DNA of 64,000 bases from Dehalococcoidia bacterium (GCA_965197585.1 OZ240215.1:1568001-1632000); one strand, 5' to 3'; counted from the first letter of the stretch, positions 9,591 through 60,290 are shown. Numbers and translations are program-made. Notes: generated from the sequence alone by a model not told the origin.

Positions 9591-9676
9591 GCCAATCCGT
9601 CGCGCCCGTCTTTCCCCCGGACACCCCATTCCACCCCATCATCCTCTCACTCCCCGGTACGTGTGGCATAACCCCC

Positions 9677-9705
9677 TTGACTTTACTGAACATATGTACT
9701 ATATT
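9677..9705 (+). promoter_or_regulatory. sigma70 promoter with LexA-type operator (element copy 1)
   Basis: TTGACT(9677)-17 bp-TATATT(9700); GAAC-ATAT-GTAC at 9688-9699. Confidence 0.75.
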
Positions 9706-9787
9706 ACCTCTCAGGCCCGACATCCCGCGTCGGCCCTAATCAAGGAATAGGTGGAACATCCGCCCCTGGCGGAACAAAAGGAGTCCC

Positions 9788-11155
9788 ATGAGTCGCACAA
9801 GGCTAATCAGGCCCCGTCGTCCCCGAGCGGTATGTCACCGCCCGGCCCCCGGCACGCGCCTCCTCCCCAATCCTCATTCCCGCCTGGACCATTCCCTGAG
9901 GCGGGGCATTCCGCTCGCCCTGAGCCGAGTCGAAGCATGTCCTGAGCCCCGTCGAAGGGGGTCTCAAGAGCGGAATGGGTGGGGCCTCCTCCCCTGTCCT
10001 CTCCATCTCAACTCCCACTACAAGCGCTGCCCAAAGGCCCTACGCCTACGCCTTCGCAGCGATCAATCACCGTCCCGCCCCCTGCATGGAAGGTCCCCGG
10101 ACAAATCACGGCACGCCCTTTCCAAGGACCACTGCCAAGTGCGCGCCCCACTCAAACGGCGCTTAGGTTTCGCCTCTTCAGGCGACGCCCTGGAGCACAT
10201 CGTCATGTCTCCACCTCGGGCCATAGTGCCCCCTTGGGCCTCCGCGCCCTTACCGGACTCCCACGGCCTAGACCTTGCCGGCCAGTCCGAACAGTCGGAT
10301 GAGCGCCGACTCAAAACCAACGCACCCTTCTCGGACTCCGCCGTCGCAGCCCTTGCCGGCCAATCCGAACAGTCGGATGAGCGCCGACTCAAAACCAACG
10401 CACCATTTAAGGATTCCACCGTCGTCACAACCGGAGAACTTCCGACTACGAACGCCGGTCACGGGTCCACGCTCCCATCCCTTAGGGTGGTCGAGCACTT
10501 CTTTACGGATTCCACCGTCGTCACAACCGGAGAACTTCCGACTACGAACGCCGGTCACGGGTCCACGCTCCCATCCCTTAGGGTGGTCGAGCACTTCTTT
10601 ACGGATTCCACCGTCGTCACAACCGGACTACTTCCGACTACGAACGCCGGTCACGGGTCCCCGCTCCCATCCCTTGGGATGGTCGAGCACTTCTGGTGGT
10701 CGGGACTGCCCCACAGCGAGACTTCCTCGCGTCTCCTCCACATCCTCTCAGAAGTTCGGGGCTGTCGCAGAGTCGTCGCCGATGTGAACCGTCCCCAGGG
10801 GCGGACACCGTGCATCGGTACAGGCGTCGCCGTCTTCCTGCACAAACGTCCGGGACCTTCCATCCCCTCCCCCTCTGCCCCTCTAACAACCAAAACAGGT
10901 GTATACTCCCTCCATCCGGCATCCGGCCTTAGTCACCGACACGGGAGCAAGCGCCATGACGAAGCTGAAGGTCGCTCACTACCTGAACCAGTTCTTCGCC
11001 GGCATCGGCGGCGAGGACAAGGCCAACACCTCACCGGGCACCGAACCCCGACCCCTCGGCCCCGGCAACTCCCTCCACCAGACCCTGACCTCCTCTGGCG
11101 ATGGAGCGGTCGTCGCAACCGTATTCTGCGGCGACACCTATTTCACCGAAAATGA
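9788..11155 (+). pseudogene. Degenerate ORF of dispersed element copy 1 with terminase-large-subunit nuclease-like relic
   Basis: AAAGGAG RBS and ATG; N-terminus homologous to the ORF at 22962; GLDLAGQSE...DSTVVT...VVEHFWWSG...RRVVAD...GTGVAVFL; overlaps the grdB-like start. Confidence 0.45.
10273..10692 (+). repeat. In-frame tandem duplications: 78 bp x2 (10273, 10351) then 96 bp x3 (10411, 10507, 10603)
   Basis: Near-identical adjacent units read directly; no spacers. Confidence 0.95.
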
Positions 11156-12284
11156 AGAGGAAGCCCTCGACCGCATCGTCGAACTAGTCCGGGACTCTGG
11201 TGCCGACGTTCTCGTCGCCGGGCCCGCTTTCGGGTCGGGACGCTATGGCCTCGCCTGCGCCCAGGTCTGCCAAAAGGTTGCCTCTTCCCTCGGTATTCCC
11301 GTCGTAGCCGGAATGCACCCAGCCAGCCCGGGAGCCGAGCAGTACAAGGGCCAAGTCTACATCGCCTCCACCGCCGAGACCGCAGTCGGCATGCCAGCCG
11401 CCATCTCTGCTATGGCCAACTTGGCAGCAAAGCTAGGGCGTGGTGAAGAGCTCGGACCCGCCGACGAGGACGGCTATATACCCACCGGCCGGGTCAAGAC
11501 CCAGGTCCACGAAAAGACCATGGCCCAGAGACTTGTCGACATGGCCCTCAAGAAGGTCAGAGGCGAGCCTTTCGAGACCGAGTGGCCCCTCCCCACCATG
11601 GAGAAGATAGCCCCGGCGCCTGCCATAGATTCCTTGGCCGGTGCCCGTATCGCCCTCGTCACCGAGGGCGGCGTCGTCCCCAGGGGCAACCCCGACAAGA
11701 TTCCCAGCGGTTGGGCCCGCCACTGGGCCCGCTACGACATCGGCGAGACGTCAGACCTCACCGCCGAGGAATGGCAGTCGGTCCACGGCGGCTTCGATAC
11801 CACAACGTTAAACCGTGACCCGGACAGGGTCGTGCCCCTTGATGTGATGCGCGATCTGGAAGAAGAAAAGGCCATAGGCAAGGTCCATGAGTATATGTAC
11901 TCGACCGTCGGGAACCTTGGCTACGTCGCCAACATGAAGCAGTTCGGCCAGGATATCGCCGCCGAGCTTCAGGCCGCTGGCGTCCAGGGGGTGATCCTCA
12001 CCGGCACCTGAGGCACGGGTACACGTAGCGGCGCTACGCTTGCCAAAGAGTTGGAACGGGCCGGCCTTCCCACCGCCTTCATCACCGCAATGGTCCCATT
12101 GGCCCAGAGCATCGGTGCAAACCGGATCGTCCAGGGCAAATCAGTGACTACGACTACAGGCGACCCCAGCCTCCCCCCCGACGAAGAAAAAGCTTTCCGC
12201 CGACGCCTCGTCGAGAGGGCTCTCAAGTCACTGCAGTCCACTCCACAGGACCAGGAAGTCGTCTGGGGCGAGGACCGGGGCTAG
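10956..12284 (+). CDS. grdB: Glycine/sarcosine/betaine reductase selenoprotein B family protein (Sec at in-frame UGA 12009-12011)
   Basis: HYLNQFFAGIGGEDKA, AGPAFGSGRYG, HGGFD, DPDRVVPLD; ILTGT-UGA-GTGTRSGATLAKELERAG continues in frame to TAG 12284, matching GrdB LTSTUGTCTRCG. Confidence 0.88.
12012..12045 (+). promoter_or_regulatory. Candidate bacterial SECIS hairpin
   Basis: CGTAGC-GGC-GCTACG stem-loop at 12024-12038, 12 nt after the UGA. Confidence 0.5.
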
Positions 12285-13819
12285 ACCGCCACCCGCTCCA
12301 GGTCTTTCAGTATGGCCTTTGCGGCGTTGTGTCCCGGTGCCCCAGTGATCTCTCCACCGGGGTGCGTCCCCGACCCGCACATGTAGAACCGGTTGATACT
12401 CGACCGGTACGGCATCCGACCCGTGAAAATCTGTTTCGTCGTTATGTCTATATGCCGGATGTTGCCGTCCGTGAGGAATTGCCTGATCTCGATGTCCTCC
12501 GGCGTCTGCAGCGTCCAGTCCACTATCGACTCCCGGAAGTTGGGTGCATAGGTCGTCAGTATGTCTATCAGCTGCTCCCCGACCTTCGGGCCCTCCACGT
12601 CCCACGAACCGTCTTTTAGCTCCGCAGGCGCATACAGCGTCCACGACGAAAGCACGTGGTGGCCCGCCGGCGTCAACGACTTGTCGTAGATCGAAGGCAT
12701 CTGCACGTTCATCACCGGGCAGCTTGAGGGATAGCCGTTCTTGGCGTCGTCCCAGCTCTGCTGGAAGTAGTCCACCGAGGGACAGATTCGGAAATACGCC
12801 GTCAGTCGAGGATCGTATTCCTCCCCCAGGTAGCTGCTGAAGTCGGGCAGCTCCCGTAGGGCAACCAGCAGCTTGACGCAGTTCGCTCGAGTGGATAGTC
12901 CGTCTACTTTGGTCTTCGTAGCCGCGTCTACGTCGGCCGCATCCACCAGGTCCCGGTAAGTGCGCTTGGGGTCGGCGTTGGACACGACCATGAAACTCCT
13001 GATCTCTTCACCGCTCTCCAACCTGACCCCGACCGCCGTCCCGTCTTCGACAATCACCTTGTCTACTACAGTGTTCAACCTGATCTCGACCCCGAGGGAC
13101 TTGGCATACCGGGCCATCGCGAAGGGCAGTTGGCTCATGCCACCGCGCGGTATGCCATAATTCTCCGGCTTGGTGAAGGTGTTTACTCGCAGATATGCCA
13201 GGCTCAGGATGCTGCCCGGTGCGCTTGGGTCACCTGCGTCCTGGGCGTCGATGAAGTGCGCCTTCACCTGCGGATGCTCGAAGTGCCTGTCGACCAGGTC
13301 TCTCATGCTGACGGTGAGCATGGTCTCCCACACTTCCTCATCACTCGTGCCCCGGACGTCCTGGTAAACCTCCGCAAGCGTCGGCGGCTCCCGGAACCAG
13401 TACCTGTGCAGGATCGCCGACGCCCTTTCCCAGAAGTTCACCCATTCAGGGAATGCCCGGGCATCCCTCTCCGAGAACCGGGCCAGCTCCTCTGCGTTCC
13501 GGTGATTCTCCCGGTACGTCATGATGTAGTTGCCGTCCGGGAACGGGTCGAACCGGAACGTCGTGAACGGGATTATGTCCAGCCCGTTGTCCCGCAACTT
13601 CAGGTCGTCGATCACCCGTCCCTGCATGATGTGCAGAATGTAGGCGCAGTAGGGGATGGTGAAGCCCGGGGCGAGTTCGTCGCTGACCACGGCGCCGCCC
13701 ACCATTTCGAGCCGCTCCAGCACCAGGACTTTCAGGCCTTCCTGGGCCAGATATCCCGCCGTGACGAGACCGTTGTGCCCCGCCCCGATGATGATGGCGT
13801 CGTATTCGTGCTGCTGCAT
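12281..13819 (-). CDS. Phytoene dehydrogenase-like NAD(P)/FAD-dependent oxidoreductase
   Basis: IGAGHNGLVTA, GGAVVS, PRGGMSQL, CGSGTHPGGEITGAPGHNAA. Confidence 0.92.
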   Translation of the reverse strand: MQQHEYDAIIIGAGHNGLVTAGYLAQEGLKVLVLERLEMVGGAVVSDELAPGFTIPYCAYILHIMQGRVIDDLKLRDNGLDIIPFTTFRFDPFPDGNYIMTYRENHRNAEELARFSERDARAFPEWVNFWERASAILHRYWFREPPTLAEVYQDVRGTSDEEVWETMLTVSMRDLVDRHFEHPQVKAHFIDAQDAGDPSAPGSILSLAYLRVNTFTKPENYGIPRGGMSQLPFAMARYAKSLGVEIRLNTVVDKVIVEDGTAVGVRLESGEEIRSFMVVSNADPKRTYRDLVDAADVDAATKTKVDGLSTRANCVKLLVALRELPDFSSYLGEEYDPRLTAYFRICPSVDYFQQSWDDAKNGYPSSCPVMNVQMPSIYDKSLTPAGHHVLSSWTLYAPAELKDGSWDVEGPKVGEQLIDILTTYAPNFRESIVDWTLQTPEDIEIRQFLTDGNIRHIDITTKQIFTGRMPYRSSINRFYMCGSGTHPGGEITGAPGHNAAKAILKDLERVAV

Positions 13820-13842
13820 TTAATGTGCTCCCGGGCCCCTGG

Positions 13843-14934
13843 CTAGTCGTACATGATGACGCTTCTGGCGATGTGTGCGTCCCTCATATCCTCGAAAGCC
13901 TCGTTAATGTCTTCCAGCTTGATCCGCTTGGAGATTATCTCGTCCAGCTTCAGCCGACCCTGTCGGTAAAGCTCCATGTACTGCGGCATGTCCACCCTGA
14001 AGTGGTTGGAGCCCATGTTGCTTCCCTGGATTCGGCGCCCGTCCAGCAACGAGGGCCCGTCTATCGTGACCTTTGTCCCCTGCGGGATCATGCCGATAAC
14101 CGTGGCCATACCACCCTTATCGAGCATGTCGTAGCACTGCTCTGCCGTAACCGCCTTCCCTATCGCCTCGAACGCATAGTCCACTCCCAGGCCTCCCGTG
14201 AGTCCTTTTACCTTGTCGACTACCCCACCCTTCGACGCGTCGATAACGTCCGTAGCCCCGACCCTCTGCGCAAATCCCAGCTTGTCCTCCACGGCGTCTA
14301 TCGCTATGACTTTCGCCGCCCCGGCAATGATCGCTCCATTGATCGCGCTCAGTCCAACCCCCCCACACCCCACAACCGCCACGGTACTCCCCGGCCTCAC
14401 CCTGGCTGTCCTCATCGCCGCCCCGACTCCCGTGGTCACGCCACAACCTATCAACGCCTGCACTTCGATTGGCACATCCTCTTCCACAACCACCGCCGCG
14501 TTCTCGTGGACCAGCATGTACTCCGCAAAGGAAGACAGGTTCATCGCTTGGTGGATCACTTCGTCGCCCTTGTGCAGGCGCGGCGACTCATTACGCCCCC
14601 TCTTGAGGCCTACTCCCCTGCAGTTCACCATCTCGCCCTGTATGCACTTGTCGCAGGTGCCGCAGAACACGGAAAGGCAGGTTATGACCCTGTCTCCCGG
14701 CTGATGGTACGTCACCTGGGCCCCGACTGCTGCCACCGTCCCCGCAGCCTCGTGTCCCAGGATGGTCGGCAGGGGGCACTTGTACAGCCCGTCTATGTAG
14801 TGCAGGTCGCTGTGGCAAACTCCGGAAGCTCCCGTCTTTATCAATATCTCCCGGGGCCCGGGTTCCCCTACGTCAACCTCTTCTATGGTAACCGGCTCGT
14901 ACGGCGCCCTCATAACGGCTGCTTTCATCTTCAT
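13843..14934 (-). CDS. Zn-dependent alcohol dehydrogenase (MDR)
   Basis: GVCHSDLH, GHEAAG, CGTCDKC, GCGGVG. Confidence 0.95.
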   Translation of the reverse strand: MKMKAAVMRAPYEPVTIEEVDVGEPGPREILIKTGASGVCHSDLHYIDGLYKCPLPTILGHEAAGTVAAVGAQVTYHQPGDRVITCLSVFCGTCDKCIQGEMVNCRGVGLKRGRNESPRLHKGDEVIHQAMNLSSFAEYMLVHENAAVVVEEDVPIEVQALIGCGVTTGVGAAMRTARVRPGSTVAVVGCGGVGLSAINGAIIAGAAKVIAIDAVEDKLGFAQRVGATDVIDASKGGVVDKVKGLTGGLGVDYAFEAIGKAVTAEQCYDMLDKGGMATVIGMIPQGTKVTIDGPSLLDGRRIQGSNMGSNHFRVDMPQYMELYRQGRLKLDEIISKRIKLEDINEAFEDMRDAHIARSVIMYD

Positions 14935-14997
14935 CTCGGGTGTCCTCCTTGGGTTTTGGTCAATCGGACTCGGTCATTCGTAACGTGATTCGTATTG

Positions 14998-22432: not shown

Positions 22433-22872
22433 TTGAACCCCTTCCTCCCCGAGGGGAGCGTGTCCGCCTAAGGCAGATCATTCCACCCGCCCAGAGCCGG
22501 TCAAAGATGCTGAAAGTGGAACATCCGCCGGTCTGAAAGTCCGCCCTAGGCGGAAAAGATGCACCTTTGGCGTGAGCCAAGGCGTGAATCCATCTCCAGT
22601 GGCAGGGCCGCTCACCCTGAGCGCCGTCGAAGGGTCGAGCGGGGGGGAGGCCCCGCACTGCCAACCCGTCGCACCCGCCCAACACCCCCCTCCCCCCTTG
22701 GCAACGATATATCAGCCGTGTTGTTCTGCAACACGGCTGATATATCAATAAAACAGGGTGGGTGGGCGGGTACCAATTAAACGGGGTGTCCGGGAGGCGT
22801 CCTACCCCCTCTCCCTCCGATGGGAGAGGGTTGGGGTGAGGGTGACCTTTCCCCAAAAGTGACACGAACCCC

Positions 22873-22902
22873 TTGACCTAATCAAAACACATGTACTATA
22901 TT
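22873..22902 (+). promoter_or_regulatory. sigma70 promoter with LexA-type operator (element copy 2)
   Basis: TTGACC-18 bp-TATATT; AAAC-ACAT-GTAC at 22885-22896. Confidence 0.7.
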
Positions 22903-22961
22903 CGCCCCCAGGCTCCGACCTTGTACGTCGGCCCTAATAAGGAAAGGACTAAAGGAGTCCC

Positions 22962-23711
22962 ATGAGTCGCACCAGCCTAATCAGGCCCCGTCGTAACCGA
23001 GCGGTATGGAACCGCCCGGCGCCCGACACGCGCCTCCTCCCGAGTCCCTCTTTCAACACCGTGTCCCTCGGATTCCCTCTACCAAGCGATGGAAGGTCCT
23101 TCGACTGTCGGCGGCATTCTCCCTCTAAGGGCCTTTGCCGATATATCGCCCCCTCATCCGGGCGTTTGCTCCTCGCCGACTTTACCCTCGCCGAGGATAT
23201 ATCCGCGTCTTTTGACGCGTTTGCCAGGGCCTTAGTGCCCTTATCCGGCTCCACCACCCGCTGTAACTGGAGATTCTCCTTCGGTCCACCGCGGCATCGA
23301 GTCGTTATGCCGTCCCACGCAGCGGTCGAGCGCTGCCGCCGGACGGATAATCCCCACCCAGAGACGCCCTCGACTTCGGTATGTCTCCTCCGACATGCGT
23401 GGGGATATCGCAGGACAGCCGTCGACGCCACCAGCGTCGGCGCAGGTGTCGTCGTCTTCCTGCTTACCAGTCCCGGACCTTCCATCGCCTCCCCTTCCCT
23501 TGCCCCATTCCCAGGCTCCGCTAGAAATCTCGGACTTGCCCACTCACCTATCTCCGCCCTCCCGGCCACTCAGCGGAAATCCAGGTGGGGAGGCCCCTAC
23601 CCCCATCACCCACGAAAGAAACCCGCCTATCTGCTCACATCCCCCACTCTCCCAACCGAGCAGCCAAAGAAAACGTCCCTTTTCCAAAACAATCAAAATT
23701 CGTGCCTCTAA
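22962..23711 (+). pseudogene. Degenerate ORF of dispersed element copy 2
   Basis: MSRTSLIRPRRNRAVWNRPAPDTRLLP homologous to the 9788 ORF; LLRHAWGYRRTAVDATSVGAGVVVFL terminase-like relic. Confidence 0.45.
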
Positions 23712-23759
23712 CCGAAATTCAATCAAAACCCCCCCATCAGAACAACCCCCACAAAAGGA

Positions 23760-23860: not shown

Positions 23861-23976
23861 CGGAATAGCGAGAAGACACCCTTTACCCCCATCAACCTTC
23901 CCCTCCCGGTTGACGCCCACGCACCCGCTTATTACAGTTGTCCCCCGAGACGATAACCCCGAAGGGAGCACCCGAC

Positions 23977-29632: not shown

Positions 29633-30163
29633 CTGGTTCCTCTCTCTGGAGATTTGGGAGCCTTCCCTTGGGTGAGCTCCACGGGTTACGTAGTCACAAC
29701 CCGCCCAAAACCACCACCGCCGTACCCTCGCTTGTCTGGGACTCCTCGCTCCCGGCGTCGTCGGTATAGGTGGCTCGCACCGAGCGTCATTTCATAATTG
29801 GCGAAGGTTATAATCGCACTTTTGGGATTCTTTGCCAAGCTACGGCCTCCTATGTACCCCCTACATAGGCTGCGAAGCCGGGATTGCATGACAATGCCGT
29901 AGCGTCACCCCACTGGCAATTGCCCGGCCCGTCGCGCCCTGGACGACGGCATATCCAAAATCCTCGGCCTCCCTGACCTCGCCAAGCTAAGAGACCTCCT
30001 GGCCTCGGAACCCGTCATATCCAACCGGCCCTTATGATCCCAGCCCCCATCCCGAGCCCCCCCAATTGACCCCCCCCGAAGTGAGCCTGTCCGCCTAAGG
30101 CGGATCATTCCCGACCCCGAGAGCCGAAATCCACCCCCATCCCCCTCCCCCCAGTACTGAACT

Positions 30164-30204
30164 AGAGGGAGACGTTGGCGCGTCTGCGCCAACGTCTCCC
30201 TCTG
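30164..30204. repeat. Perfect inverted repeat (REP-like or terminator)
   Basis: AGAGGGAGACGTTGGCGC-GTCT-GCGCCAACGTCTCCCTCT. Confidence 0.7.
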
Positions 30205-30290
30205 TTCTTATCTCCCCCTCTCCCTTAATGGCCCTAAGGGAGAGGGGGATCAAGGGGGTGAGGGTTCCCGGTGGGGCTGGGGCGGTGTTC

Positions 30291-30940
30291 CCCCGAAAGT
30301 GACACGAACCCCTTGACCCGTGTGGAACACTAGTGCTATTATCCTCACCGTTCGAACACCAACCTAACTATCTCAAGGAGGAACCAAAAACCCAGGGAAG
30401 CCCACCCGACCCACCCGAGGACTCAACGCCCCAGCCCATCCCAACGGCCCTCGCGCAGGCCCGCGGCACAAGCGAAAGCGGAACGTCCGCCTATGGAGGA
30501 GCGCCATCTCCTCATCCCACCGGGTCCCGTATCCCCTTCCCTGACTCCCAGGCGATGGATGGTCCACAATTTTAAGCGGCACGCTCCCCTCAAAGGAGCC
30601 CTGCCCAAATGAGCCCCGCTCACGCCGGGCCAAACACCTCGGGCCTTTACGCCCTTGGAAATATCTCCCCCGTCGTTCCCTTCGGAGACCCCCATACAAC
30701 CAGCGACGGCAGCGAGAAAACGTGCTCCCCACCCCTCCGAGTGGGTCAGCCAAAACTGGTGGTAGAGATGCCCTCAAGCGAGAACCCCTCGCTTGTCTAC
30801 CACGTGATAACAGAAGCACGGGGCTGAACCAGGCTGGCCTCCCGCCCCCTGAATCCGAGTCCCGGACCTTCCATCGCCTGCCCTCCCCCAACAACCCAAA
30901 CCGAAACCCCACCCCCCACAACCGAATAAAAACCCGGCGA
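30291..30940 (+). repeat. Dispersed element copy 3 (closest to copy 4)
   Basis: 30375-30560 highly similar to the reverse complement of 60045-60212; 3' block CTTCCATCGCC...CCCCACAACnGAATAAAA shared. Confidence 0.85.
30313..30342 (+). promoter_or_regulatory. sigma70 promoter with LexA-type operator (element copy 3)
   Basis: TTGACC-18 bp-TATTAT; GAAC-ACTA-GTGC at 30325-30336; upstream AAAGTGACACGAACCCCTTGACC identical to copy 2. Confidence 0.65.
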
Positions 30941-31057
30941 GCCACTAACCTACCGGACCAGTTCCCCCAATTGACCCCCCACCCCCGACATGCTACCATC
31001 CCACCCTAGTGACCCCTATCACGCGGTAGGGGTCACATTCGGGTATAGAGCCACCCT

Positions 31058-41839: not shown

Positions 41840-41887
41840 TTGACACCCTCTGTCCACTTTGTTATTATTTCCTTAGAACGCCCGTTC
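41840..41887 (+). promoter_or_regulatory. lexA promoter and autoregulatory SOS box
   Basis: TTGACA(41840)-17 bp-TATTAT(41863); GAAC-GCCC-GTTC at 41876-41887. Confidence 0.85.
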
Positions 41888-41902
41888 CCAACAGAGGTGC
41901 GC

Positions 41903-42535
41903 ATGAAAGCTTTGTCAAAAAAACGTAAGCAAGTCCTTAACGCCATTACTGGCTTTATGGACCGGCACAAGTATCCTCCCAGCGTCCGGGACGTCGTCCA
42001 TATGTGCAGCATGAGCTCTACTTCAGTGGCCGACTACCACCTCAAAGCCCTCGAGAGGGAGGGCTACATCCGCAGGGAGTCGGGCGTATCCCGGGGAATA
42101 GAAGTCATCGGCTACGATGGTCGGGACGCCAACATCTTCAGGGCCCCACTCCTGGGCACCATCGCTGCCGGCGAGCCTCTCCCAGTCCCCACCTCAGAGC
42201 CCTGGGCTTCCTTGGAAACCCTCGAAATTCCCGAGGACATGGTCGGCGGCAGAGAGAATGTCTACGCCCTCAAAGTCAAGGGCACTTCAATGATCGACGC
42301 CCTAATCGACGACGGTGACATCGTCCTCCTCCAGCACGTCAACACCGCCGACGACGGCGATATGGTCGCCGCCTGGCTTGAGGCCGAGGAGGAAGTCACC
42401 CTCAAGCGCCTCTACCGAGAGCCGGATAGGATCAGGCTTCAGCCCGCCAACTCCCAAATGGCCCCCATCTACGTCCACCCCTCTAACCTCTCCGTCAAGG
42501 GCAGAGTCATAGGCGTCATACGCAAACTGGCCTAA
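41903..42535 (+). CDS. lexA: SOS repressor LexA
   Basis: YPPSVRD..SSTSVADYHL, IAAGEP cleavage site, GTSMID, VTLKR. Confidence 0.96.
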   Translation: MKALSKKRKQVLNAITGFMDRHKYPPSVRDVVHMCSMSSTSVADYHLKALEREGYIRRESGVSRGIEVIGYDGRDANIFRAPLLGTIAAGEPLPVPTSEPWASLETLEIPEDMVGGRENVYALKVKGTSMIDALIDDGDIVLLQHVNTADDGDMVAAWLEAEEEVTLKRLYREPDRIRLQPANSQMAPIYVHPSNLSVKGRVIGVIRKLA

Positions 42536-43374: not shown

Positions 43375-45395
43375 CTACAGCGCCCACACGTTGAAATTTA
43401 AAAACTGAGCGTCACCCCTGTCACCTTCGAAAAATCCAGCCATCGCACTAACCTCGCCAACATCTTGATTATGTCCCAAGTCCAACTTGAACACTAATTG
43501 GTCGTTTATGAAAACCCACCCCGAGCCCGCAACAGCTATCAATGCCAGCCGATTCCGATTCGAAGACAGACGGCACCCAGAACTGGAAAGGAAACCAGAA
43601 GACACCTCGGTGTATTCGGTGTCCCCAACGTCCCGAGTATTGTGGAACCACCATTCATCATCCGTCACACCAATAACTTCCAATCGATTGAACTCGGGGT
43701 TCCTTATTACGAATCCATAGTCCCAGTTTTGACCCCCCGGATTGATAAACTCCACTTCTACCACCAAATCCCTGGTCCACACTCTGCTTCCGTGTTCTCC
43801 GATAACACCCGGCCTATCCTCCATGACTCCGTCCACAGGTCCATACTGCCTCCTCAACCTATAGCCCTTGAAACCCTCGTATCGGGTCACGGCCCCGGTA
43901 ATTTCATTCCCCCCGTAATATCCAGTGAAGACCACGACGTCACCGGCATGTGGCACTGTTGCCAAGTCTACAAGCGTGACAAAATCTCCATTCACAAAGA
44001 ACCATCCCCGCTCTCCTAGAGTCACAACCATCAGGTGATTACGGCCTCCGACACTCGAATCGAAGTTCCCGATTTTTCCCGCATCCAGGAGGCTGGAAGA
44101 AGACCCAATGCCAGATTTTACCTCCCAGCTATGGTCGCTAGTTACGATAAACCCCAGAAACGAACCAATGCTATCCTGCCAGTTATAGCGCAAGAACATC
44201 CCGTAGTCCCATGAGTTAGTCGAAGCCGCATATGGGTTCACGAACCTGGTCTCAACAACCATGTCTGATGCCAAGACGTTGGCATGGATGATCTTTGAGT
44301 AATTCGCGGATGCATTGTGGCGGAGCTCTCCGTTCAAAGGCCCAAAGTCATATCCCTGACTCGCAAAAGGTGTTGGGGTAGGGCTTGTAGGAGTTGCAGT
44401 CGGCACCGCCGTCCCAGCCCTCAGGACCGGCACCCGCTCTGTCACCGTCCTCGCTGATATCGCAAACCCGATCCCCTCCGCACCATAGTCCGACACGTAT
44501 ACAAACGAGTTGATCCCCAGCACTCGGCCTTCAGGCGAAAGCATAGGGCCTCCACTGTTGCCCGGGTTTATCGACGCGTCCGTTTGGATCACATACGCCT
44601 GATGATCTGAGTCGTAGCGCAATGCCGATACTATCCCCTTTGTAACAGTAGCCTGCCCTTCGATGCCCAACGCATATCCAATGTTCACCACTTCGTCCCC
44701 TACTTCCAGCGCCGTCGCATCCCCGAACTCCAGAGCTGTGAAATCGCCGCAACAGTGCTTACAACCGCCAGATCCCGAGTTGCGTCTACCCCCAACACCG
44801 TCCCGTTATAAGTCGTCGAATCGTTTACCGTCACATTCACTCTTGACAGCGCCTCTACAACATGCTCATTAGTGACCACGTATCCCGTCCGGCCCTGCGT
44901 GTCGAATATGACCCCAGTACCGCTGATCGTGCTACTGGTTATCCTCACCACGGCCGGCCGCGCCCGTCTAACCATCACACTAATCGGCTCCGAGCTGGAC
45001 GTTGCAGTGGGCACAGGCGTAGGTATGGCCGTAGGCACAGGCGCTGGTGTGGCTGTAGGCACGGGTGTGGGTGTGGCCGTAGGTAGGGGCGTGGGCGTGG
45101 CTGTAGGCACAAGTGTGGGAGTGGCTGTAGGCACGTGTGTGGGAGTGGGCGTCGAGACCAGTGTGGGCGCAGGTATAGCCGTGGGGGGCATTGCCGCCAT
45201 GGTGGCCGCCAGCCGTGCCTCAACTGTGGCGTCGATGTCCGGGAGAGGGGTTGGCGTAGCTGTAGGCAGGGCTTCCGCGACCGCCGTCCTCACCTCCGCC
45301 CCCACGTCGGTAGTAGGCGTAGGGGCTTCACCCGACCCGCTGCACGCGCCCATCAATAGCGCAAGGGTGATTGCCACCACACCAAGGACTCTCAT
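43375..45395 (-). pseudogene. Trypsin-like (S1C) serine protease lipoprotein with PTATP repeats, frameshifted near 44757
   Basis: Lipobox MGAC, TNEHVV and DLAVV in one frame; CCGDFTALEFGD..INPGNSGGP in another; consistent with a single missing base. Confidence 0.85.
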
Positions 45396-45491
45396 TTGTT
45401 GCCCCAACTACTCCTACGTATAAGCCTGCTCCGGAGTTCGCGCAATATCCCGTACCCTCTAAATCATCCCGTCTCCCCCACACCCGACTCC

Positions 45492-53763: not shown

Positions 53764-53863
53764 AGGTTAGAGATGTCCGAACTGCAAATGCCGGTCAAGT
53801 ATAATGGCCTCGGCAAACAAGCGACAACGCAGACTCCGACACCCCAGAAAGGGACGGCCAAAC

Positions 53864-54961
53864 ATGCTTATAGACGGCCACGCTTACATATTCGAGCCAA
53901 TGGACTCTGCCGCCGGATACCCGACCCTCGAGCAAAAGATGCAGGCGGTCCAGCAGGAACTGTCGATTCACCACCAACCCGTCTGGCGAGTCCGCGACCG
54001 AGCCCACGCCGACAACTCCGTCCTCGCCGACCCCGACTCCGGCGCCCTTCACGAAGTCTCTTGGGGCCGGGACAAGGACCGCCTGACCTGGACGTATGAG
54101 GGTGAGACTTACACCAAGCAGTACCTTCCGCCCATGCTCAACAACCTCGAAATGCCCCCCGAGCGTCTCATCGCCGAGATGGACTACGCCGGCGTCGACT
54201 TAGCAATTCTCCACAACGCCTCCCACCTGGGCCGCAACAACAAGCTCCACTCCGAGGCCACCTCCCAATACCCCGACCGCCTCAAGAGCCTCATGCACGT
54301 GCCCGAGACCGACATCCCCTCCGACCCATACGCCGCCTTAAAGGAAGTCGAGCATTGGCTTAACGCCGGTGGCGTATGCGGATTGCAATTCTTCACGCGC
54401 CCTTACTCGACCGGCGGCTTTGCGGAAAGCTGGAATATGGGCCCCATGCGCGAATTCTGGCAGGGCATCTCTACGCTTGGACTCCCCGTATACTTCACAG
54501 TACAACCTAGGGCTGGTCAGGCATTCGCAAAGTCCGGCACCGCAAGCTACCTCAGTGAACTCGATACGGTTCACGACTGGCTGGAAGATTATCCCAACCT
54601 CCCCGTCGTCCTTACCCATGGCCTTAGCTGGGGCAACTTCCGCCAGGACGACCGCATCATTCTCCCCGAAGCCGTCTGGCGTGTATTCGAATCCGACAAA
54701 TGTCACCTCCAACTCCTCTTCCCCATCCAACTCGGCGGCATCTGGCAGTACCCTTTCAAGAACGTCGAGCCAACCGTTGAAGAGATAGTTCAACGCATCG
54801 GGTCCGACCACGTCATCTTGGGCACCGACTTACCCATGGTCGCCCGATTCTGGACTTACCGACAAACCATCGACCAGTACCGCGTCCACTGCCCCTTCCT
54901 CTCCGACGAAGACCGAGCCAACATCCTCGGCGGAACCGTCGCCCGAATTCACAACCTTTAA
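53864..54961 (+). CDS. Amidohydrolase family protein (Amidohydro_2)
   Basis: IDGHAY (HxH variant), THG, GTDLP, ILGGT. Confidence 0.85.
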   Translation: MLIDGHAYIFEPMDSAAGYPTLEQKMQAVQQELSIHHQPVWRVRDRAHADNSVLADPDSGALHEVSWGRDKDRLTWTYEGETYTKQYLPPMLNNLEMPPERLIAEMDYAGVDLAILHNASHLGRNNKLHSEATSQYPDRLKSLMHVPETDIPSDPYAALKEVEHWLNAGGVCGLQFFTRPYSTGGFAESWNMGPMREFWQGISTLGLPVYFTVQPRAGQAFAKSGTASYLSELDTVHDWLEDYPNLPVVLTHGLSWGNFRQDDRIILPEAVWRVFESDKCHLQLLFPIQLGGIWQYPFKNVEPTVEEIVQRIGSDHVILGTDLPMVARFWTYRQTIDQYRVHCPFLSDEDRANILGGTVARIHNL

Positions 54962-54986
54962 ATACAACATCCTCCGGAGGACACCT

Positions 54987-56156
54987 ATGAACAATGGCTT
55001 CAAAGTCATGGACAGCGACATCCACGTCTCCGAGCCCCCCGACCTGTGGATCGACTACATCGACCCCGCCTTCCGAGACGTTGCCCCGCGCAAGATGTCC
55101 ATGAACGGCCGCTCCGAGACCTGGCACTGCCTTGGCAAGCCTCTCCCCGCCTTCATCGACAGGCCCGAACGCCAGCGTGGACTCGATATCCGCAACGAGA
55201 TCGCCCGTCAGAAAGCTGAAAGCGAAGGGATATACCAGCCCGAAAAGCACGAGTCCGGTAGCCCGGGCGTTGAGGAGGAAGAAGGCTCCCGCCCCGAGCA
55301 CATGCTCGAGGCAGTCAAGGTGGAAGGCCTGGACGCGGCCGTCTGTTTCCGTACCATGGCTGCCCACGTCATCGGCATCGACGACATGGACCCCAATATA
55401 GCCGCCGCCATATGCCGGGCCTTCAACCGCTGGCTCCGGGACTTCTGCGATGCGGACCCATCCGTCCTCAAGCTCGGCGCCCTAGTCCCCATGCACGATG
55501 TCAACCTCGCCGTCCGGGAAGCCGAGTTTGCGGTCAACGAACTCGGTGCCGTGACTCTCGTCCTACCCAGCAACCCCGTCCGCCAACTCCCCTGGTACGA
55601 CCCCTCCTACGAACCATTCTGGGCTGCAGCCCAATCCCTCGGAGTCCCCGTCTCATTCCATGGCATCCAGATGGCCTACCAGGACCATCTAGCCAGGCGT
55701 TACATGGACAACCACGCACTGGGCCACTCCGTTGCCCACCCCGTCGAAATGATATGCACCCTCGGCGCAATGATCACCGGCGGTGTCCTCGAAAGAATGC
55801 CCACCCTTAAGGCCGCCTTTCTGGAGGGCCACAGTAGCTGGGTCCCATGGTGGCTCTACTGCCTCGACGAGCACGAGGAAATGATGGGCGACAAAGACCG
55901 CTTTGGCCTCACCCGTGCCCCGAGTGAATATTTCCTCGAACACTGCTTCGTCTCCGTTGACCCCGACGAGGCCCTCGTCAAATACACCATCCAGGCCATA
56001 GGCTCCAGGAACCTGGTCATCTCCACCGACTGGCCCCACAACGACTCCGCCTACCCCCATGCCATCGAGACCTTCCTCTCCCTCGAAGACGTCCCCGAGT
56101 CCAGCCAGCGAGAAATCCTCTGGGACAACTGCGCCCGCCTGTACAACATCTCGTGA
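54987..56156 (+). CDS. Amidohydrolase family protein (Amidohydro_2)
   Basis: DSDIHVSEP, SFHG, FLEG, STDWPHND, NCARLY. Confidence 0.93.
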   Translation: MNNGFKVMDSDIHVSEPPDLWIDYIDPAFRDVAPRKMSMNGRSETWHCLGKPLPAFIDRPERQRGLDIRNEIARQKAESEGIYQPEKHESGSPGVEEEEGSRPEHMLEAVKVEGLDAAVCFRTMAAHVIGIDDMDPNIAAAICRAFNRWLRDFCDADPSVLKLGALVPMHDVNLAVREAEFAVNELGAVTLVLPSNPVRQLPWYDPSYEPFWAAAQSLGVPVSFHGIQMAYQDHLARRYMDNHALGHSVAHPVEMICTLGAMITGGVLERMPTLKAAFLEGHSSWVPWWLYCLDEHEEMMGDKDRFGLTRAPSEYFLEHCFVSVDPDEALVKYTIQAIGSRNLVISTDWPHNDSAYPHAIETFLSLEDVPESSQREILWDNCARLYNIS

Positions 56157-57151
56157 GTAAAACCTTCTTGCTGAATAAAGCCGGGATTACCGTCACGTCC
56201 GTAGTACTCGCCGTCCTGCTGATGTGTATCGCCTGTGGCCCGACACCCCCCGCCCTACCCCTCCTCGACGCCATAGACCAGGAGGATACGGATGTCGTCC
56301 GGGCCCACATGGAGATCGGCACAGACCCCGACAAGACATTCATCCCACCGGGCATCCCATTTGCCGGTGCCTCGGCCCTCCACGTTGCAGTCCTTAAGGA
56401 CAACCGAGAAATAGTCCAACTCCTCCTCGATAACGGCGCAGACATCGATATAAGGGCGCTGGACGATTCCAAGGGCTCACCTCTCGAATGGGCGGCCTAC
56501 TTCGGGCTCAAGGACATGGCCGTCTTCCTCGCTAAGTCGGGCGCATATATCAACGCCAGAAACGCTTACGGCACCACGCCCCTTGACGCCGCCTATGCCA
56601 ACAACCCCTTCATCCCCGAAGAGGATCGCAACCGGTTCAACGCAAACCGCGACCTCATAAGTGCATATCTGATTGAAAAAGGCGCACAGTCCACCACCCC
56701 GGTCCTCACCCTCTTGGACGCCATCGATCAGGACAACACCAACGCCGTACGTGCTCACATGGAGTCCGGTACAGACCCTGACAAGACTTTCATCCCGCCG
56801 GGACTTCCCTTCGCCGGCGCCTCAGCACTCCACGTCGCAGTCCTTAAAGATAACCGGGAGATCGTCCAGATTCTCCTCGACAACGGTGCAGACATCGACA
56901 TGCAGGCATCCGACGAATTCAAAGGCTCGCCTCTGGAATGGGCTGCCTTCTTCGGCATCAAGGACATGGCAGTCTTCCTGGTAGAGTCCGGCGCCGACAT
57001 CAACTCTAGGAACGCCTACGGCACAACCCCCCTCGACGCCACCTCATCAGACAATCCTTTCATTCCCGAAGAGGACCGCAAGCAGTTCGACGAAAATCGC
57101 TTCTTCTTAAGACAATACCTCTCCGAAAAAGGCACCCAGTCCGGCCGGTAA
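56153..57151 (+). CDS. Ankyrin-repeat lipoprotein made of two duplicated 150-aa units
   Basis: Lipobox IAC; SALHVAV, SPLEWAA, TPLDA; DNA units offset by 450 bp (56261 vs 56711). Confidence 0.92.
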   Translation: MSKTFLLNKAGITVTSVVLAVLLMCIACGPTPPALPLLDAIDQEDTDVVRAHMEIGTDPDKTFIPPGIPFAGASALHVAVLKDNREIVQLLLDNGADIDIRALDDSKGSPLEWAAYFGLKDMAVFLAKSGAYINARNAYGTTPLDAAYANNPFIPEEDRNRFNANRDLISAYLIEKGAQSTTPVLTLLDAIDQDNTNAVRAHMESGTDPDKTFIPPGLPFAGASALHVAVLKDNREIVQILLDNGADIDMQASDEFKGSPLEWAAFFGIKDMAVFLVESGADINSRNAYGTTPLDATSSDNPFIPEEDRKQFDENRFFLRQYLSEKGTQSGR

Positions 57152-57161
57152 ACCCCTCCCC

Positions 57162-58073
57162 CTACCCCCCACCAAACAGCGGAATAACCTCCCGCGCAAT
57201 CCTCTCCGGCATCTCCGCTGTCACTTCCTCCGGCCCTGACGGACTGAATATGAAGTGCTCGACCCCTGCATCCCGGTACTCCTGCATCCGAGCCACAATC
57301 TGCTCCGGCGTCCCCAAAAGCGCGTACCTCCGCACTATCTGATCGAATGACTGACCGTAGTCGCCCCCCAACGCCTGACTCGACATCCGGGCCGCCTCGT
57401 CATAGCTGTCGTCTATGCAGATTGGTACCCATACCGTCGGCTCTATCTCCTTCGGGTCCCGACCCACACCCTCGGCGATCTCTACAATCTGCTGCCACCC
57501 CTCCTTGAACAGTTCCGGCGAGTACATGTACGGAATCCACCCATCGCCGTACAGTGCCGTCCTCCGCACCGACTTCCTCCGCCCGCCGATGTAAATCGGC
57601 GGATGCGGTTTCTGCACCGGTTGCGGTTTCAGCCCCACGTCTTCCAGTTGATAAAACCGCCCGGAAAACGTCACTGACTCCTCAGTCCACAGCCGTTTCA
57701 TTAGCCGCATGATCTCGTTGGCCCTCGGCCCTCGCTCATTCACCGGCACACCCATTGCCTCGAACTCTTTCGTGTATTCCCCCCCAATCCCGATCCCGAA
57801 CTTAACCCTCCCCCCCGAAAGATGGTCCAGCGTGGTCACCGCCTTGCACATCAGTATCGGGTGCTTAAGGGGGATCAGTACTATCGCCGTGCCCAGCTCT
57901 ATGCGCTCGGTGACCGCGGCCGCAGCCGCCATCTGCATCAGGCTGTCCTGGATCGGGTGTCGCCACACGACGTGCTCTCCCGCCCACACCGAGTCGAAGC
58001 CCAGGTCCTCGGCCTTGCGCGCCTGCCCCGCGGGGTCTCCCCCACTCTCCTTAAGCGTAATCCCGAACTTCAT
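57162..58073 (-). CDS. LLM-class flavin/F420-dependent oxidoreductase
   Basis: AEDLGFDSVWAGEH, LDHLSGGR, PQPVQKPHPPIYIGG, GTPEQ. Confidence 0.94.
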   Translation of the reverse strand: MKFGITLKESGGDPAGQARKAEDLGFDSVWAGEHVVWRHPIQDSLMQMAAAAAVTERIELGTAIVLIPLKHPILMCKAVTTLDHLSGGRVKFGIGIGGEYTKEFEAMGVPVNERGPRANEIMRLMKRLWTEESVTFSGRFYQLEDVGLKPQPVQKPHPPIYIGGRRKSVRRTALYGDGWIPYMYSPELFKEGWQQIVEIAEGVGRDPKEIEPTVWVPICIDDSYDEAARMSSQALGGDYGQSFDQIVRRYALLGTPEQIVARMQEYRDAGVEHFIFSPSGPEEVTAEMPERIAREVIPLFGGG

Positions 58074-58089
58074 AGTAGGCGTTCGGGCC

Positions 58090-59454
58090 CTACCCCAGCT
58101 CCGAGCTCACGTCGCTTAGGATTTCGTTCAGATTGCTGACTATGTAGTCCACCTCATCCCTTGTCACACACAGTGGAGGACTGAGGAAAATCAGGTTGCC
58201 ACGCTGCCGAGTCAAGATGCTGTGCTTTAGGAAGCCCTTGGTCAGCTTCTCTCCCAGCCCCGAGTCTTCTGCAAACTTCTCCTTCGTGTTCCGGTCCTTC
58301 ACTATCTCCACCGCCGCCAGAAGCCCGAGACCCCCCCGCACGTCCCCGACTATCGGGTGCTCGTACAAGGTCTGAAGTTGCTCATACATGTAAGTGCCCA
58401 TCTCTGCGGCATTCTGCACCAGCCCCTCGCCTTCCAGGATGTCCAGGTTGGCCAGCGACGCCGCGCACGAAACAGGGTGACCGCCGAAGGTCAGCAGGTG
58501 TTTGAACGTCTTATCCTCACCTCCGATGAATGTGTCGGCCACCGACTTCCGAGCCACCGCCGCCCCTATGGGCAAGTATCCGCTCGAAAGGCCCTTGGCC
58601 ATCGTCATTATGTCCGGCTGCAGGTCCCAGTGCTCCGATGCGAACATCTTTCCCGTTCGCCCGAACCCCGTGATCACCTCGTCCACAATGAGGAGCACGC
58701 CGTATTTGTCGCATATCTCCCTGATCGTCGGCCAGTATTCGGGATGAGGCACCATCATAGTCGCCGCCGAAATCGGCTCCGCAATGATCGCCGCTACCGT
58801 CTCTGGCCCCTCGTGCAGTATCGCTCTCTCGAAGTCCCTGGCACACTCCACGTTACACTGACCGGCCATACTGCAGAACTGGCACCGGTAGTTGTTCGGC
58901 TGGGAAACGTGAATGTTCCCCGGGATCAGAGGCCCGAATCCGCTTGTGCCGGGGTATCCTCCCAGGCTCATCAGCGCGAACGTAGCCCCGTGATAGGAGT
59001 TCTGGCGGCTGATGATCTTGTACCGACCCTTGTCTCCCCTCACCTGGTGGTACGCCTTCGCCATCTTCAACGCCGATTCCACCGCCTCCGACCCACCGCT
59101 CACCATGAACACCCGAGACTCCTTGTCCCGTGACAAGCTAGCCAGCCTTGTGGCCAGCTTAAGCGCCGGAACGTTAGTCGTGTTCTCCGGCGAGTATGTG
59201 ATGTGCTGCATCTGCTCATACACCGCATCGGCTATCTCCGTCCGGCCGTATCCAATGTTCTTCAGCCACATCCCCGACAGTACGTCAATGTATTTCCTGC
59301 CATCCGTATCCTCTACCCAGCAGCCCTTCCCGTCTGCCATCACGTGGAGCCCGTCCTCCTTATCGAAGTCGGCTACCTGCTGAGAGTGAGGCCAGAAGTG
59401 ATCGCGGGCCATTTTTTTCAGCTCGTCTGCGCTGGGGGATTGGATAGACGCCAT
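58090..59454 (-). CDS. Class III PLP aminotransferase
   Basis: SGGSEAVE, SYHG, DEVITGFGRTG, AKGLSSGY. Confidence 0.94.
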   Translation of the reverse strand: MASIQSPSADELKKMARDHFWPHSQQVADFDKEDGLHVMADGKGCWVEDTDGRKYIDVLSGMWLKNIGYGRTEIADAVYEQMQHITYSPENTTNVPALKLATRLASLSRDKESRVFMVSGGSEAVESALKMAKAYHQVRGDKGRYKIISRQNSYHGATFALMSLGGYPGTSGFGPLIPGNIHVSQPNNYRCQFCSMAGQCNVECARDFERAILHEGPETVAAIIAEPISAATMMVPHPEYWPTIREICDKYGVLLIVDEVITGFGRTGKMFASEHWDLQPDIMTMAKGLSSGYLPIGAAVARKSVADTFIGGEDKTFKHLLTFGGHPVSCAASLANLDILEGEGLVQNAAEMGTYMYEQLQTLYEHPIVGDVRGGLGLLAAVEIVKDRNTKEKFAEDSGLGEKLTKGFLKHSILTRQRGNLIFLSPPLCVTRDEVDYIVSNLNEILSDVSSELG

Positions 59455-59596
59455 AACGTGACTCCTTTGGAGAGCATTCCTGAGACTTGTGGGTAACGGG
59501 CACAGCCCCAACTAATCGGGGCCTCTGGCCTCGATTCTATACCCGCCCGCGAGGCTCGGTCAAACCTGTGTACTCATTCGGTAGACTAGCGACACA

Positions 59597-60290
59597 CCGG
59601 GTTTTATTCAGTTGTGGGGTTTTGGGTGTTGGTTGTTTTGTTGGGGGGGTGGCGATGGAAGACGCCCGTTTGGCAGAGCTGCTTGTTCGTGGACTTGCAG
59701 CCAGTATGCCCTGATGCTAGATGGTATACACGGACAATTCTCGGGCCAGACGTCCGGCAGAGGCTCCTTATGGGGGCTGTATGCACGTGGGGGCATGTCA
59801 GGGCCAGGGATCCAGCTGTGCGAGGCCCCACAGCCTAACTAATAGTGTCCAAGTTCGCCGGAAAAGGACAGGAGCGAATATCCTCCGGGCACCCCCGCGC
59901 CGTAGCGCCAAACTCCAGCAATGCGGCCCGACGTTCGAGATGGTTCTCCATGGGGGTTAGGCGGTCCGCGGAGTGTATGCTCCGGTCACCCTTGATGCAA
60001 TCTCCCATGCAGGGAGCGGGGTGGGAGCGTGAAGGCCAGGGCGTCTTTCCATCGCCTGGGGGTCAGGGAAGGGTACACGGGACCCGGTGGGGATGAGGAG
60101 ATGGCGCCGGTCGCTTGTGCCGCGGGCCTGCGCGAGGGCCGTTGGGATAGGCTGAGGCGTTGAGTCCTCGGGTGGGGCCGGGTGGACTTCCCTAGTTTTT
60201 GGTTCCTCCTTAAGGTGGTTGAGGGTAGTGGTCGGGTCTAGACCTGGCTCCAATATAGAACATAAGTACTTACGATGTCAAGGGGGTGAT
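59597..60290 (-). repeat. Dispersed element copy 4 (inverted)
   Basis: Reverse complement matches copy 3 at the 5' block (AAGGAGGAACCAAAAAC...GCGATGGA) and the 3' block (CTTCCATCGCC...GAATAAAACCCGG). Confidence 0.85.
60252..60281 (-). promoter_or_regulatory. sigma70 promoter with LexA-type operator (element copy 4)
   Basis: Minus-strand TTGACA-18 bp-TATATT; AGAAC-ATAA-GTACT at 60257-60270. Confidence 0.8.

Follow-up and report, generated by a model that had tools for sequence, protein, structure and literature searches.

Translation of a leader open reading frame (ORF) of ~25 codons in the tna operon (TnaC) decides whether Rho terminates transcription before the structural gene. OLE, GOLLD, ROOL and HEARO are large structured non-coding RNAs of bacteria, known as Rfam families, SgrS/SgrT and RNAIII/hld are dual-function RNAs in which the peptide is short and conserved, and REP, BIME and MITE sequences are dispersed, intergenic, hairpin-rich, mosaic repeats. 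Putative mobile promoters (PMC3575422) are highly similar upstream regions that precede non-homologous genes, both within and between genomes. Here we describe four elements of 0.6-1.2 kb (c1 to c4) in a 64,000-nucleotide stretch of a Dehalococcoidia bacterium (GCA_965197585.1, OZ240215.1:1568001-1632000), hereafter the window, with coordinates counted from its first letter. The G+C content of the window is 59.5% and its source is a Dehalococcoidia-like genome.

The four elements belong to a family that is real, undescribed and restricted to one lineage, the Dehalococcoidia; no description of it was found in the open-access literature. Each cassette has a strong predicted sigma-70-type promoter (P1), the spacer of which contains a palindromic, operator-like box, and encodes a highly structured, C-rich RNA of 0.6-1.2 kb, in which a conserved 5' domain (A or B) is combined with a helix that closes a multi-hairpin body (X or Y). 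The cassette occupies a fixed position ahead of a co-oriented gene. Copies with 5' domain A (subtype A) carry a long open frame which is under selection for openness only, its amino acids being unconstrained. We tentatively propose that the elements are cis-acting leader cassettes, possibly operated by LexA, in which a C-rich tail would act as a Rho-type attenuator that is masked by ribosomes in subtype A, a reading that we hold to be possible rather than probable.

Four elements with a common promoter head

The elements extend over 9661-10880 (c1, + strand), 22855-23500 (c2, +), 30295-30935 (c3, +) and 60300-59600 (c4, -), all four being present where the first-pass annotation had placed them; nhmmer with the family profiles matched only c1-c4, with no fifth copy in the window. 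They share the promoter head, one block in the interior and another on the 3' side (the internal block and the 3' block). Each element starts with GT(G/A)ACA-N4-CCCCTTGAC, followed by a spacer of 17-18 nt and TATATT or TATTAT (4/4), so that the head described by the same annotation is found in every copy, and the promoter scan scores of the heads are 10-11 of 12 (c1 9677-9705, c2 22873-22902, c3 30313-30342, c4 60281-60252). The window has 12 occurrences of the motif CCCTTGAC, where 2.66 would be expected and 0/100 shuffles reach 12. The head of c1 (9661-9705, +) consists of an upstream GTGTGGCA motif, the -35 TTGACT (9677-9682), the box GAACATATGTAC (9688-9699) and the -10 TATATT (9700-9705). 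In the head of c2 (22855-22902, +), GTGACACGAA precedes TTGACC (22873-22878), the box AAACACATGTAC (22885-22896) and TATATT (22897-22902); that of c3 (30295-30342, +) has the same GTGACACGAA, then TTGACC (30313-30318), the box GAACACTAGTGC (30325-30336) and TATTAT (30337-30342), and that of c4 (60252-60300, -) has GTAACATCAC, TTGACA (60281-60276), the box GTACTTATGTTC (60269-60258) and TATATT (60257-60252).

The 3' block, CTTCCATCSCC, has four exact matches in the window, one in each element and none elsewhere. Other parts of the earlier description had to be amended. The internal block is present in all four elements, but its c4 version (GGCGATGGAAAGACGCC) lacks the GTCC that was thought to be typical of it; the tails of c3 and c4 are C/A-rich as reported, but that of c2 is C/T-rich; and the division into a c1/c2 and a c3/c4 subtype is true for the 5' domain, but not for the middle, which is of type X in c1, c2 and c3 and of type Y in c4. 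A tRNA/tmRNA scan detected nothing in the elements. Rfam (4227 models) gave 0 matches over the whole window at the gathering score and, for c1, c3 and c4 at E values up to 10, matches of chance level only. Pfam had no match for the ORFs of the elements; of the antisense ORFs 30373-30999 and 22949-23569, this search took in the former. Hairpin modules similar to REP sequences (CCCTCTCCC..GGGAGAGGG and then GGGTGAGGGT) are found at 22790-22850, 30205-30270 and 60325-60385, and also at 7060-7135; they stand directly 5' of three of the four heads and elsewhere in the window, and are probably a separate, genome-wide repeat.

Relatives were sought by one scan of species-representative genomes with the head pattern, in which only AC and GT of the box were fixed. 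The scan gave at least 104 loci (cited here as L003, L004 and so on), 80 of these with full flanks, hence copy numbers are lower bounds. Among the loci listed at least 18 are members of the family, all in five Dehalococcoidia metagenome-assembled genomes (MAGs) with at least 7, 5, 3, 2 and 1 copies, respectively, which upholds the earlier proposal of a multicopy family that keeps its regulatory head.

In 4/4 window heads the 12-bp box abuts the -10 on its 5' side. The box pattern occurs 7 times in the window against 5.6 expected, which is not above chance; it is the fixed position in all four heads, and not the window-wide count, that makes the box non-random. The formula (G/A)AAC-N4-GT(A/G)C given by the first-pass annotation is correct as to the position in 4/4 copies, but GTACTTATGTTC of c4 matches it on the opposite strand only. 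Compared to GAAC-N4-GTTC, the boxes of c1 to c4 have 1, 2, 1 and 1 mismatches, respectively. One half-site of the family boxes is usually GTAC or AAAC, and at the box positions left free by the scan the 18 relatives listed have GAAC in 6/18, GTTC in 5/18 and both in 0/18. The family boxes are thus weaker than those of the 36 other Chloroflexota promoters listed, 23 of which have GAAC at the box spot (~2 expected by chance) and 15 GTTC. This enrichment argues that the box is a recurrent regulatory motif rather than a product of chance.

The LexA of Dehalococcoides shares the GAAC-N4-GTTC motif. PMC3323433 describes GAAC-N4-GTTC as the LexA motif of Bacillus subtilis and of Gram-positives. The window itself includes a candidate regulator outside the elements, lexA (41876-42535, +, ATG at 41903), with Pfam LexA_DNA_bind and Peptidase_S24 domains, and the only perfect GAAC-N4-GTTC of the window (GAACGCCCGTTC, 41876-41887) lies just 3' of the lexA -10, in line with the earlier observation that this gene carries a LexA motif. 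Among the loci listed, the clostridial ones ahead of a Y-family polymerase gene carry GAAC-N4-GT(T/G/A)(C/T) at the same spot (4/4), with the half-sites GTTC in L033 and L058, GTGT in L040 and GTAT in L061. The likening of the box to a LexA operator, made in the first-pass annotation, agrees with its Gram-positive-type position and form and with these four polymerase loci, and LexA control of the elements is plausible.

The same scan gave further loci which are of interest in their own right. In L003, L027 and L036 (Chloroflexota) a common gene of 236-248 aa with no Pfam match stands behind a GAAC/GTAC-N4-GTKC promoter and is a candidate SOS gene. L004, L005, L018, L050 and L084, all of OY282365.1, are five copies of a different element of ~280 nt that has the same promoter with an GAACTCCTGTAC box; this element is rich in GTTCCAC, GGAACAG and TGGGACA repeats and its body is unrelated to the c1-c4 family. 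L011 (539-1993, -) and L088 have the same head before a 485-codon ORF with no Pfam match, which begins with 60-66-nt tandem repeats and continues in an acidic, more protein-like C-terminal half. The other Chloroflexota box promoters were also considered as a wider non-coding family, which was rejected, only L003/L027/L036 and L011/L088 being mutually related.

A long-range helix and a conserved body

The internal block and the 3' block are reverse complements that pair, together with their neighbours, as a long-range helix of 15-25 bp. The first-pass annotation had reported that no terminal inverted repeats are present; this repeat is internal, and had been overlooked. The helix has a duplex energy of -29 to -43.5 kcal/mol in 17/18 full-length copies (the exception is L055 with -16), and the mean energy of cognate strands is -33.5 kcal/mol versus -22.6 kcal/mol for mismatched X-Y partners. 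The inner part of the helix reads GGAAGGTCC/GGACCTTCC (GGTCC/GGACC) in module X (c1, c2, c3) and GGAAAGACGCC/GGCGTCTTCC (GACGCC/GGCGTC) in module Y (c4), the latter being compensated relative to the former, while the extension of the helix varies in step (GACTCT/AGAGTC, GACTG/CAGTC, GACTA/TAGTC, CCGGAC/GTCCGG). In c1 (+) the 5' strand is located at 10083-10102 (TGCATGGAAGGTCCCCGGAC) and the 3' strand, with the 3' block (10857-10867) and a short C-rich tail, at 10848-10880 (GTCCGGGACCTTCCATCC); in c2 (+) the strands are at 23086-23107 (GCGATGGAAGGTCC..GACTG) and 23468-23489 (CAGTC..GGACCTTCCATCGC, 3' block 23479-23489). In c3 (+) the 5' strand is found at 30551-30565 (GGCGATGGATGGTCC) and the 3' strand with the tail at 30864-30935, of which 30864-30878 is GGACCTTCCATCGCC and the C/A-rich, G-poor tail includes ACCGAAACCCC and ACAACCGAATAA. 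The Y variant of c4 (-) has its 5' strand at 60036-60056 (GGCGATGGAAAGACGCCCTGG) and its 3' strand and tail at 59600-59667, with GGGCGTCTTCCATCGCC at 59667-59651 and a C/A-rich tail that ends in ACAACTGAATAA.

The minimum free energy folds of c3 and c2 include the long-range helix and are far more stable than those of shuffled sequences (z -6.9 and -6.0, respectively; 0/100 shuffles as stable), the fold of c4 being weaker (z -2.0, 20 shuffles). A body hairpin, as traced in 98 ORF translations, alternates between GCGAG-loop-CTCGC and CCGAG-loop-CTCGG; the pair is kept in 109 of 118 instances, lost in 9, and the reverse mismatch occurs in none of the 118, which are mutually related and therefore not an independent count. 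RNAalifold yielded a weak consensus with little automatic covariation both for the subtype-B 5' domain (-15.6 kcal/mol) and for the repeat unit (-8.4 kcal/mol), therefore the structural case rests on the long-range helix, the single-sequence z-scores and the hand-checked hairpins. Energies beyond those of shuffles and compensatory changes, which are the generic marks of a structured RNA, are both found.

Each window copy is nearer to relatives in other genomes, among the loci listed, than to the other copies in the window: c1 is 90% identical to L023 versus 75% to c2, the 5' domain of c4 is 93% identical to that of L037 versus 81% to that of c3, and c3 is 76% identical to L007 over 505 nt. Since the cross-species identities exceed those within the window, the bodies, including the tandem repeats of c1, are conserved and not decaying. 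The earlier suggestion that the body 'decays or diversifies' is contradicted by the 74-90% identity of orthologous bodies between species, by the z-scores of c3 and c2 and by the compensatory base-pair changes. Orthologues being closer than paralogues, there was no recent burst, and the paralogues predate the species splits.

This age bears on one of the options put forward in the first-pass annotation, a non-autonomous mobile element, and likewise on a 'mobile promoter' cassette. Such a unit would spread to the upstream side of genes, either through recombination between promoter-like ends or with the help of a trans-acting transposase, and the inverted repeat would be the ends of a nested MITE-like insertion. 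Such an origin would fit copies that stand before non-homologous genes at non-syntenic sites: the window shares no flank with the loci listed, and the 14 full-flank loci include one pair with shared flanks (L023/L065; flanks 89-91%, head 88%, middle 73% identical), in which the element is present at both sites. It would also fit the 15-25 bp inverted repeat that bounds modules X and Y, the mosaic combination of 5' domains and middle modules (A+X, B+X, B+Y), the promoter-like sequence at both ends (GAGTGACA..TTGAC and GAGTACA..TTGAC) and the reuse of promoters before unrelated genes, as described in PMC3575422. We regard it as quite improbable, however, as the paralogues of one genome are more distant than orthologues are, the inverted repeat lies inside the element, starting 200-440 nt from its 5' end and leaving head and tail outside, and not at the termini as in a MITE, and transposase binding leaves the covarying internal hairpins unexplained. 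Moreover, a transposase or integrase gene stands beside the element in only 2/18 loci (L074, L059), and the plasmid and phage collections had no match for the c1 and c4 queries.

The open frame of subtype A and its absence from subtype B

All nine subtype-A DNA copies (c1 and c2 in the window) have a Shine-Dalgarno (SD) sequence GGAG, 4 nt and then ATG or GTG. In c1 this signal, conserved in 9/9 copies, is at 9777-9790 (+; AAAGGAG, 4 nt, ATG at 9788) and starts a frame-only ORF of 455 codons (9788-11155, +), which continues across the entire structured body, then the 3' block and tail, and overlaps the downstream GRDB-like gene by 198 nt in another frame. The ORF includes in-frame tandem duplications at 10268-10694 (+), a 78-nt unit twice and then a 96-nt unit three times (10406-10694). 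The frame-only ORF of c2 (22962-23711, +), also with AAAGGAG before its start, has 249 codons. The frame is open to the 3' block and for 44-177 codons past it in 6/7 full copies (L065 has one stop), the distance from ATG to the 3' block is 1 mod 3 in 6/6 orthologues at lengths of 690-1077 nt, and every one of the indels and tandem duplications in the protein-guided alignment is in frame. In a neutral simulation at the observed divergence of 8-24%, the frame stays open in 34% down to 4% of the trials.

The amino acids encoded by this frame bear no comparable imprint. Differences between subtype-A copies are even over the codon positions in 15/15 pairs (e.g. 27/29/33), synonymous versus non-synonymous codons are 17:49, which looks neutral, and the GC fractions of the first, second and third codon positions are 0.66/0.56/0.68 (c1) and 0.59/0.62/0.68 (c2), where 13 genes of the window have ~0.62/0.42/0.76. 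For the product, AlphaFold2 run on an alignment of 98 rows predicted no secondary structure (predicted local distance difference test score, pLDDT, 52; predicted template modelling score, pTM, 0.14), its language-model recognition score of 1576 is under the mark of 2300, and a search of the ESM Atlas with it gave no usable match. Of the properties expected of a protein-coding gene, subtype A therefore has the start signal and the kept open frame, and lacks purifying selection on amino acids and a typical codon composition.

It is very doubtful that subtype A is a true gene family of fast-evolving, basic, disordered proteins rich in R, P, S and H, perhaps damage-induced, with hairpins that are incidental or regulatory and with subtype B as a non-coding derivative. 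The conserved SD-ATG, the open frames, the consistent N-terminus and the repeats that are always in frame would be accounted for, and the predicted products are numerous: at least 424 predicted proteins of 198-630 aa match the frame (E<=1e-3, among 8000 scored candidates), several of which appear to share a contig (8 on one 4.99 Mb contig, 5 on OZ244800.1), and a profile search of 1.84 billion proteins gave 190 representative clusters matching the product. A gene family of this kind is disfavoured, however, by third-position changes that are not in excess, the atypical GC over the three codon positions, base-pair covariation that crosses codons, and a product without Pfam match, predicted fold or language-model recognition above the mark. 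Neither is a stop codon selected, the ORF ends being scattered and at times overlapping the next gene, and subtype B is equally or more conserved without any frame. The at least 424 'hypothetical proteins' in the databases are probably translations of this RNA, which is a warning for annotation. Translational coupling of the subtype-A stop to the start of the next gene was also considered and was rejected because these stops are scattered.

Subtype B (c3, c4 and 11 loci listed) has an invariant AAGGAGG that no start codon follows, each of its six frames is interrupted by stops, and it is conserved at least as strongly as subtype A. The 5' domain of c3 (30375-30550, +) consists of AAGGAGG (30375-30381), the blocks CCGAGGACTCAACG, AGCCCATCCCAA, CAAGCGA and CGCCATCTCCTC, and a hairpin insertion of 22 nt at ~30478-30502; that of c4 (60057-60211, -) begins with AAGGAGG at 60211-60205. 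In the B+X copies L067 and L075 the X frame is still open. The insertion in c3 is one case of a small hairpin module (GGAACATCCGCC-N3/4-GGCGGA) that is inserted at differing places, namely at 9750-9775 in c1, at 30478-30502 in c3 and in the tails of L057, L074 and L075; its length is 25-26 nt in c1 and L055 and 22 nt in c3, and it stands before the ATG in c1 and in a copy without frame in c3.

Position ahead of genes, proposed function and comparison with known systems

On the downstream side of the element the next gene has the same orientation in 17/18 copies (p=1.4e-4), whereas on the upstream side it is divergent in 16/18 (p=1.3e-3), with 90-450 nt between the 3' block and the downstream start codon. 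The 18 copies stand ahead of unrelated genes from at least 12 Pfam families. Among these genes are GRDB-like, Lyase_1, RibF, class-III aminotransferase, luciferase-like monooxygenases, MetE-like, amidohydrolase, PrpD, NuoE/F, MFS and others. The tail is the strongest C-over-G window of each element (C 42-56%, G 9-14%), and no intrinsic terminator was found on the element strand in 4/4 window copies. The ORFs of subtype A extend beyond the 3' block by 44-177 codons and so cover the tail, and this subtype has the layout of a leader-ORF attenuator, i.e. an ORF that covers a C-rich, G-poor, rut-like tail before a co-oriented gene. The c1 element ends 90 nt before its gene (ATG at 10957) with no other promoter between the two.

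We propose that P1 would be held down by LexA and fire after DNA damage, and that the tail would be a Rho-loading (rut-like) site, so that the read-through from P1 into the downstream gene would be set by what covers the tail. In subtype A, ribosomes would start at the SD-ATG, cross the whole body and the tail and thereby mask the latter; the need for ribosomes to traverse the tail could be the reason why the frame is kept open by in-frame indels while the amino acids are ignored. In subtype B, which would not be translated, AAGGAGG would pair with CCCUUCC beside the helix, and read-through would be set by RNA folding alone or by a bound factor.

Several observations weigh against this cis-acting leader reading. 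In 9/18 copies the element is separated from its gene by a further promoter-like site (P2), so that these genes need not depend on P1, and the downstream genes are without a common pathway. L053 and L055 have a strong terminator hairpin ~60 nt past the element, and no rho gene is present in the window. Subtype B has no ORF, therefore the ribosome-shield step is not general, and its 5' domain, though conserved in sequence, has covariation in only 2/25 predicted pairs. As for the box, a perfect GAAC-N4-GTTC is found in 0/22 heads of the family (one mismatch in 10, two mismatches in 12), the scan pattern having fixed the AC and GT positions in 18 of the 22, and the same head is also found ahead of unrelated bodies (the L004 group, L011/L088). 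In the window, P2 was detected by the promoter scan at 23910-23938 (+) between c2 and its Lyase_1 (fumarase/aspartase-type) gene, at 30971-30999 (+) between c3 and ribF, and at 59534-59563 (-) between c4 and its class-III aminotransferase gene. In c4, L057 and L075 the sequence CTACCGAAyGAGTACA..TTGAC is conserved up to the -35 of P2, though the downstream genes differ.

Some of the same observations would be expected of large structured RNAs that stand alone and act in trans, comparable in scale to OLE, GOLLD and ROOL; these would be made from P1, ended by Rho at the tail and bind a protein or other RNAs via the sequence-invariant, C-rich 5' blocks, subtype A being then a dual-function RNA. 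The strong predicted promoter of their own, the strong folding and covariation, the single-stranded blocks that do not vary among the 5' domains of 13 subtype-B copies and the several old paralogues per genome speak for this view, as do P2, which supplies the neighbouring gene with its own promoter in half of the copies (9/18), and the terminators after the L053 and L055 elements. We consider it rather unlikely, because the co-orientation and the divergent intergenic siting would be unexpected for a trans-acting RNA, c1 ends close to its gene without another promoter, the flanks of 14 loci contain no recurring partner gene, and no Rfam family matches. Returning to the cis-acting leader cassette, a bolder version of it is a new large structured RNA class specific to Dehalococcoidia, switched by LexA and DNA damage, in which the ribosomes of subtype A, crossing a frame of 180-450 codons kept open for this alone, would remodel the RNA and mask the Rho site, the peptide would be thrown away and catabolic genes would be wired to the SOS response; in this extended form it is unlikely.

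Other features of the window and of the related loci are recorded here. A perfect terminator hairpin of 19 pairs that starts with CTAGAGG is located at 30163-30204, and a similar design is found ~60 nt after the L053 and L055 elements. C/A-rich motifs of the CAATCAAAA type are repeatedly seen directly ahead of ribosome-binding sites, within 5' untranslated regions (62794-62834, 23688-23730 and several loci), and may be a general leader feature of these genomes. A trypsin-like (HtrA/DegP-type) protease at 43375-45407 (-) consists of two ORFs that are in different frames on either side of a TAG at 44700-44702; one of them matches the N-terminal and the other the C-terminal part of the Trypsin_2 profile, and the split reflects either a frameshifted gene or an assembly error. 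The ribosomal protein L9 ORF at 1932-3095 (-) has 387 codons with L9 domains on residues 24-169 only; this is either a long C-terminal extension or an over-extended ORF.

If the proposed function is true, the elements would constitute an RNA family that has so far gone unrecorded, present several to many times per genome in an uncultured but abundant lineage of soil and subsurface, and they would show with unusual clarity how selection can act on translation as such, rather than on the protein, across hundreds of codons. It would open to test how long untranslated or structured transcripts escape Rho, and how far the SOS response reaches to metabolic genes in Chloroflexota.

Compared to Gram-positive-type LexA operators, the elements have a similar 12-bp palindrome-like box in the promoter spacer, abutting the -10, at a spot that is also used in the four clostridial Y-family polymerase promoters; the difference is that the element boxes, which are candidate operators, are never perfect and usually have GTAC or AAAC as one half-site. 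The elements resemble REP, BIME and MITE sequences in being dispersed, intergenic, hairpin-rich and mosaic, with small REP-like modules inserted in some copies, but they are ten times longer, bear promoters, are orientation-locked to the downstream gene and are old paralogues. As in the putative mobile promoters of PMC3575422, a homologous upstream region stands before non-homologous genes, but the unit is far longer, has a conserved structured RNA and often two promoters. With OLE, GOLLD, ROOL and HEARO the elements share a size of 0.6-1.2 kb, many hairpins, long-range closure and restriction to a single lineage; they differ from these in that they match none of the 4227 Rfam models, occur in several to many copies per genome at a fixed position before a gene, and have a frame-only ORF. 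SgrS/SgrT and RNAIII/hld similarly combine a structured RNA and a translated frame (here a predicted one) in one transcript, whereas the frame of subtype A extends over the entire RNA, with no constraint on its amino acids. The TnaC-type attenuators differ from subtype A in that the frame of the latter has 176-455 codons, crosses a highly structured RNA and lacks a stop codon at a set position, and from subtype B in that this has no ORF. The likeness to TnaC lies in an upstream ORF whose translation, and not whose product, would decide Rho termination, and in the C-rich, G-poor end of the leader.

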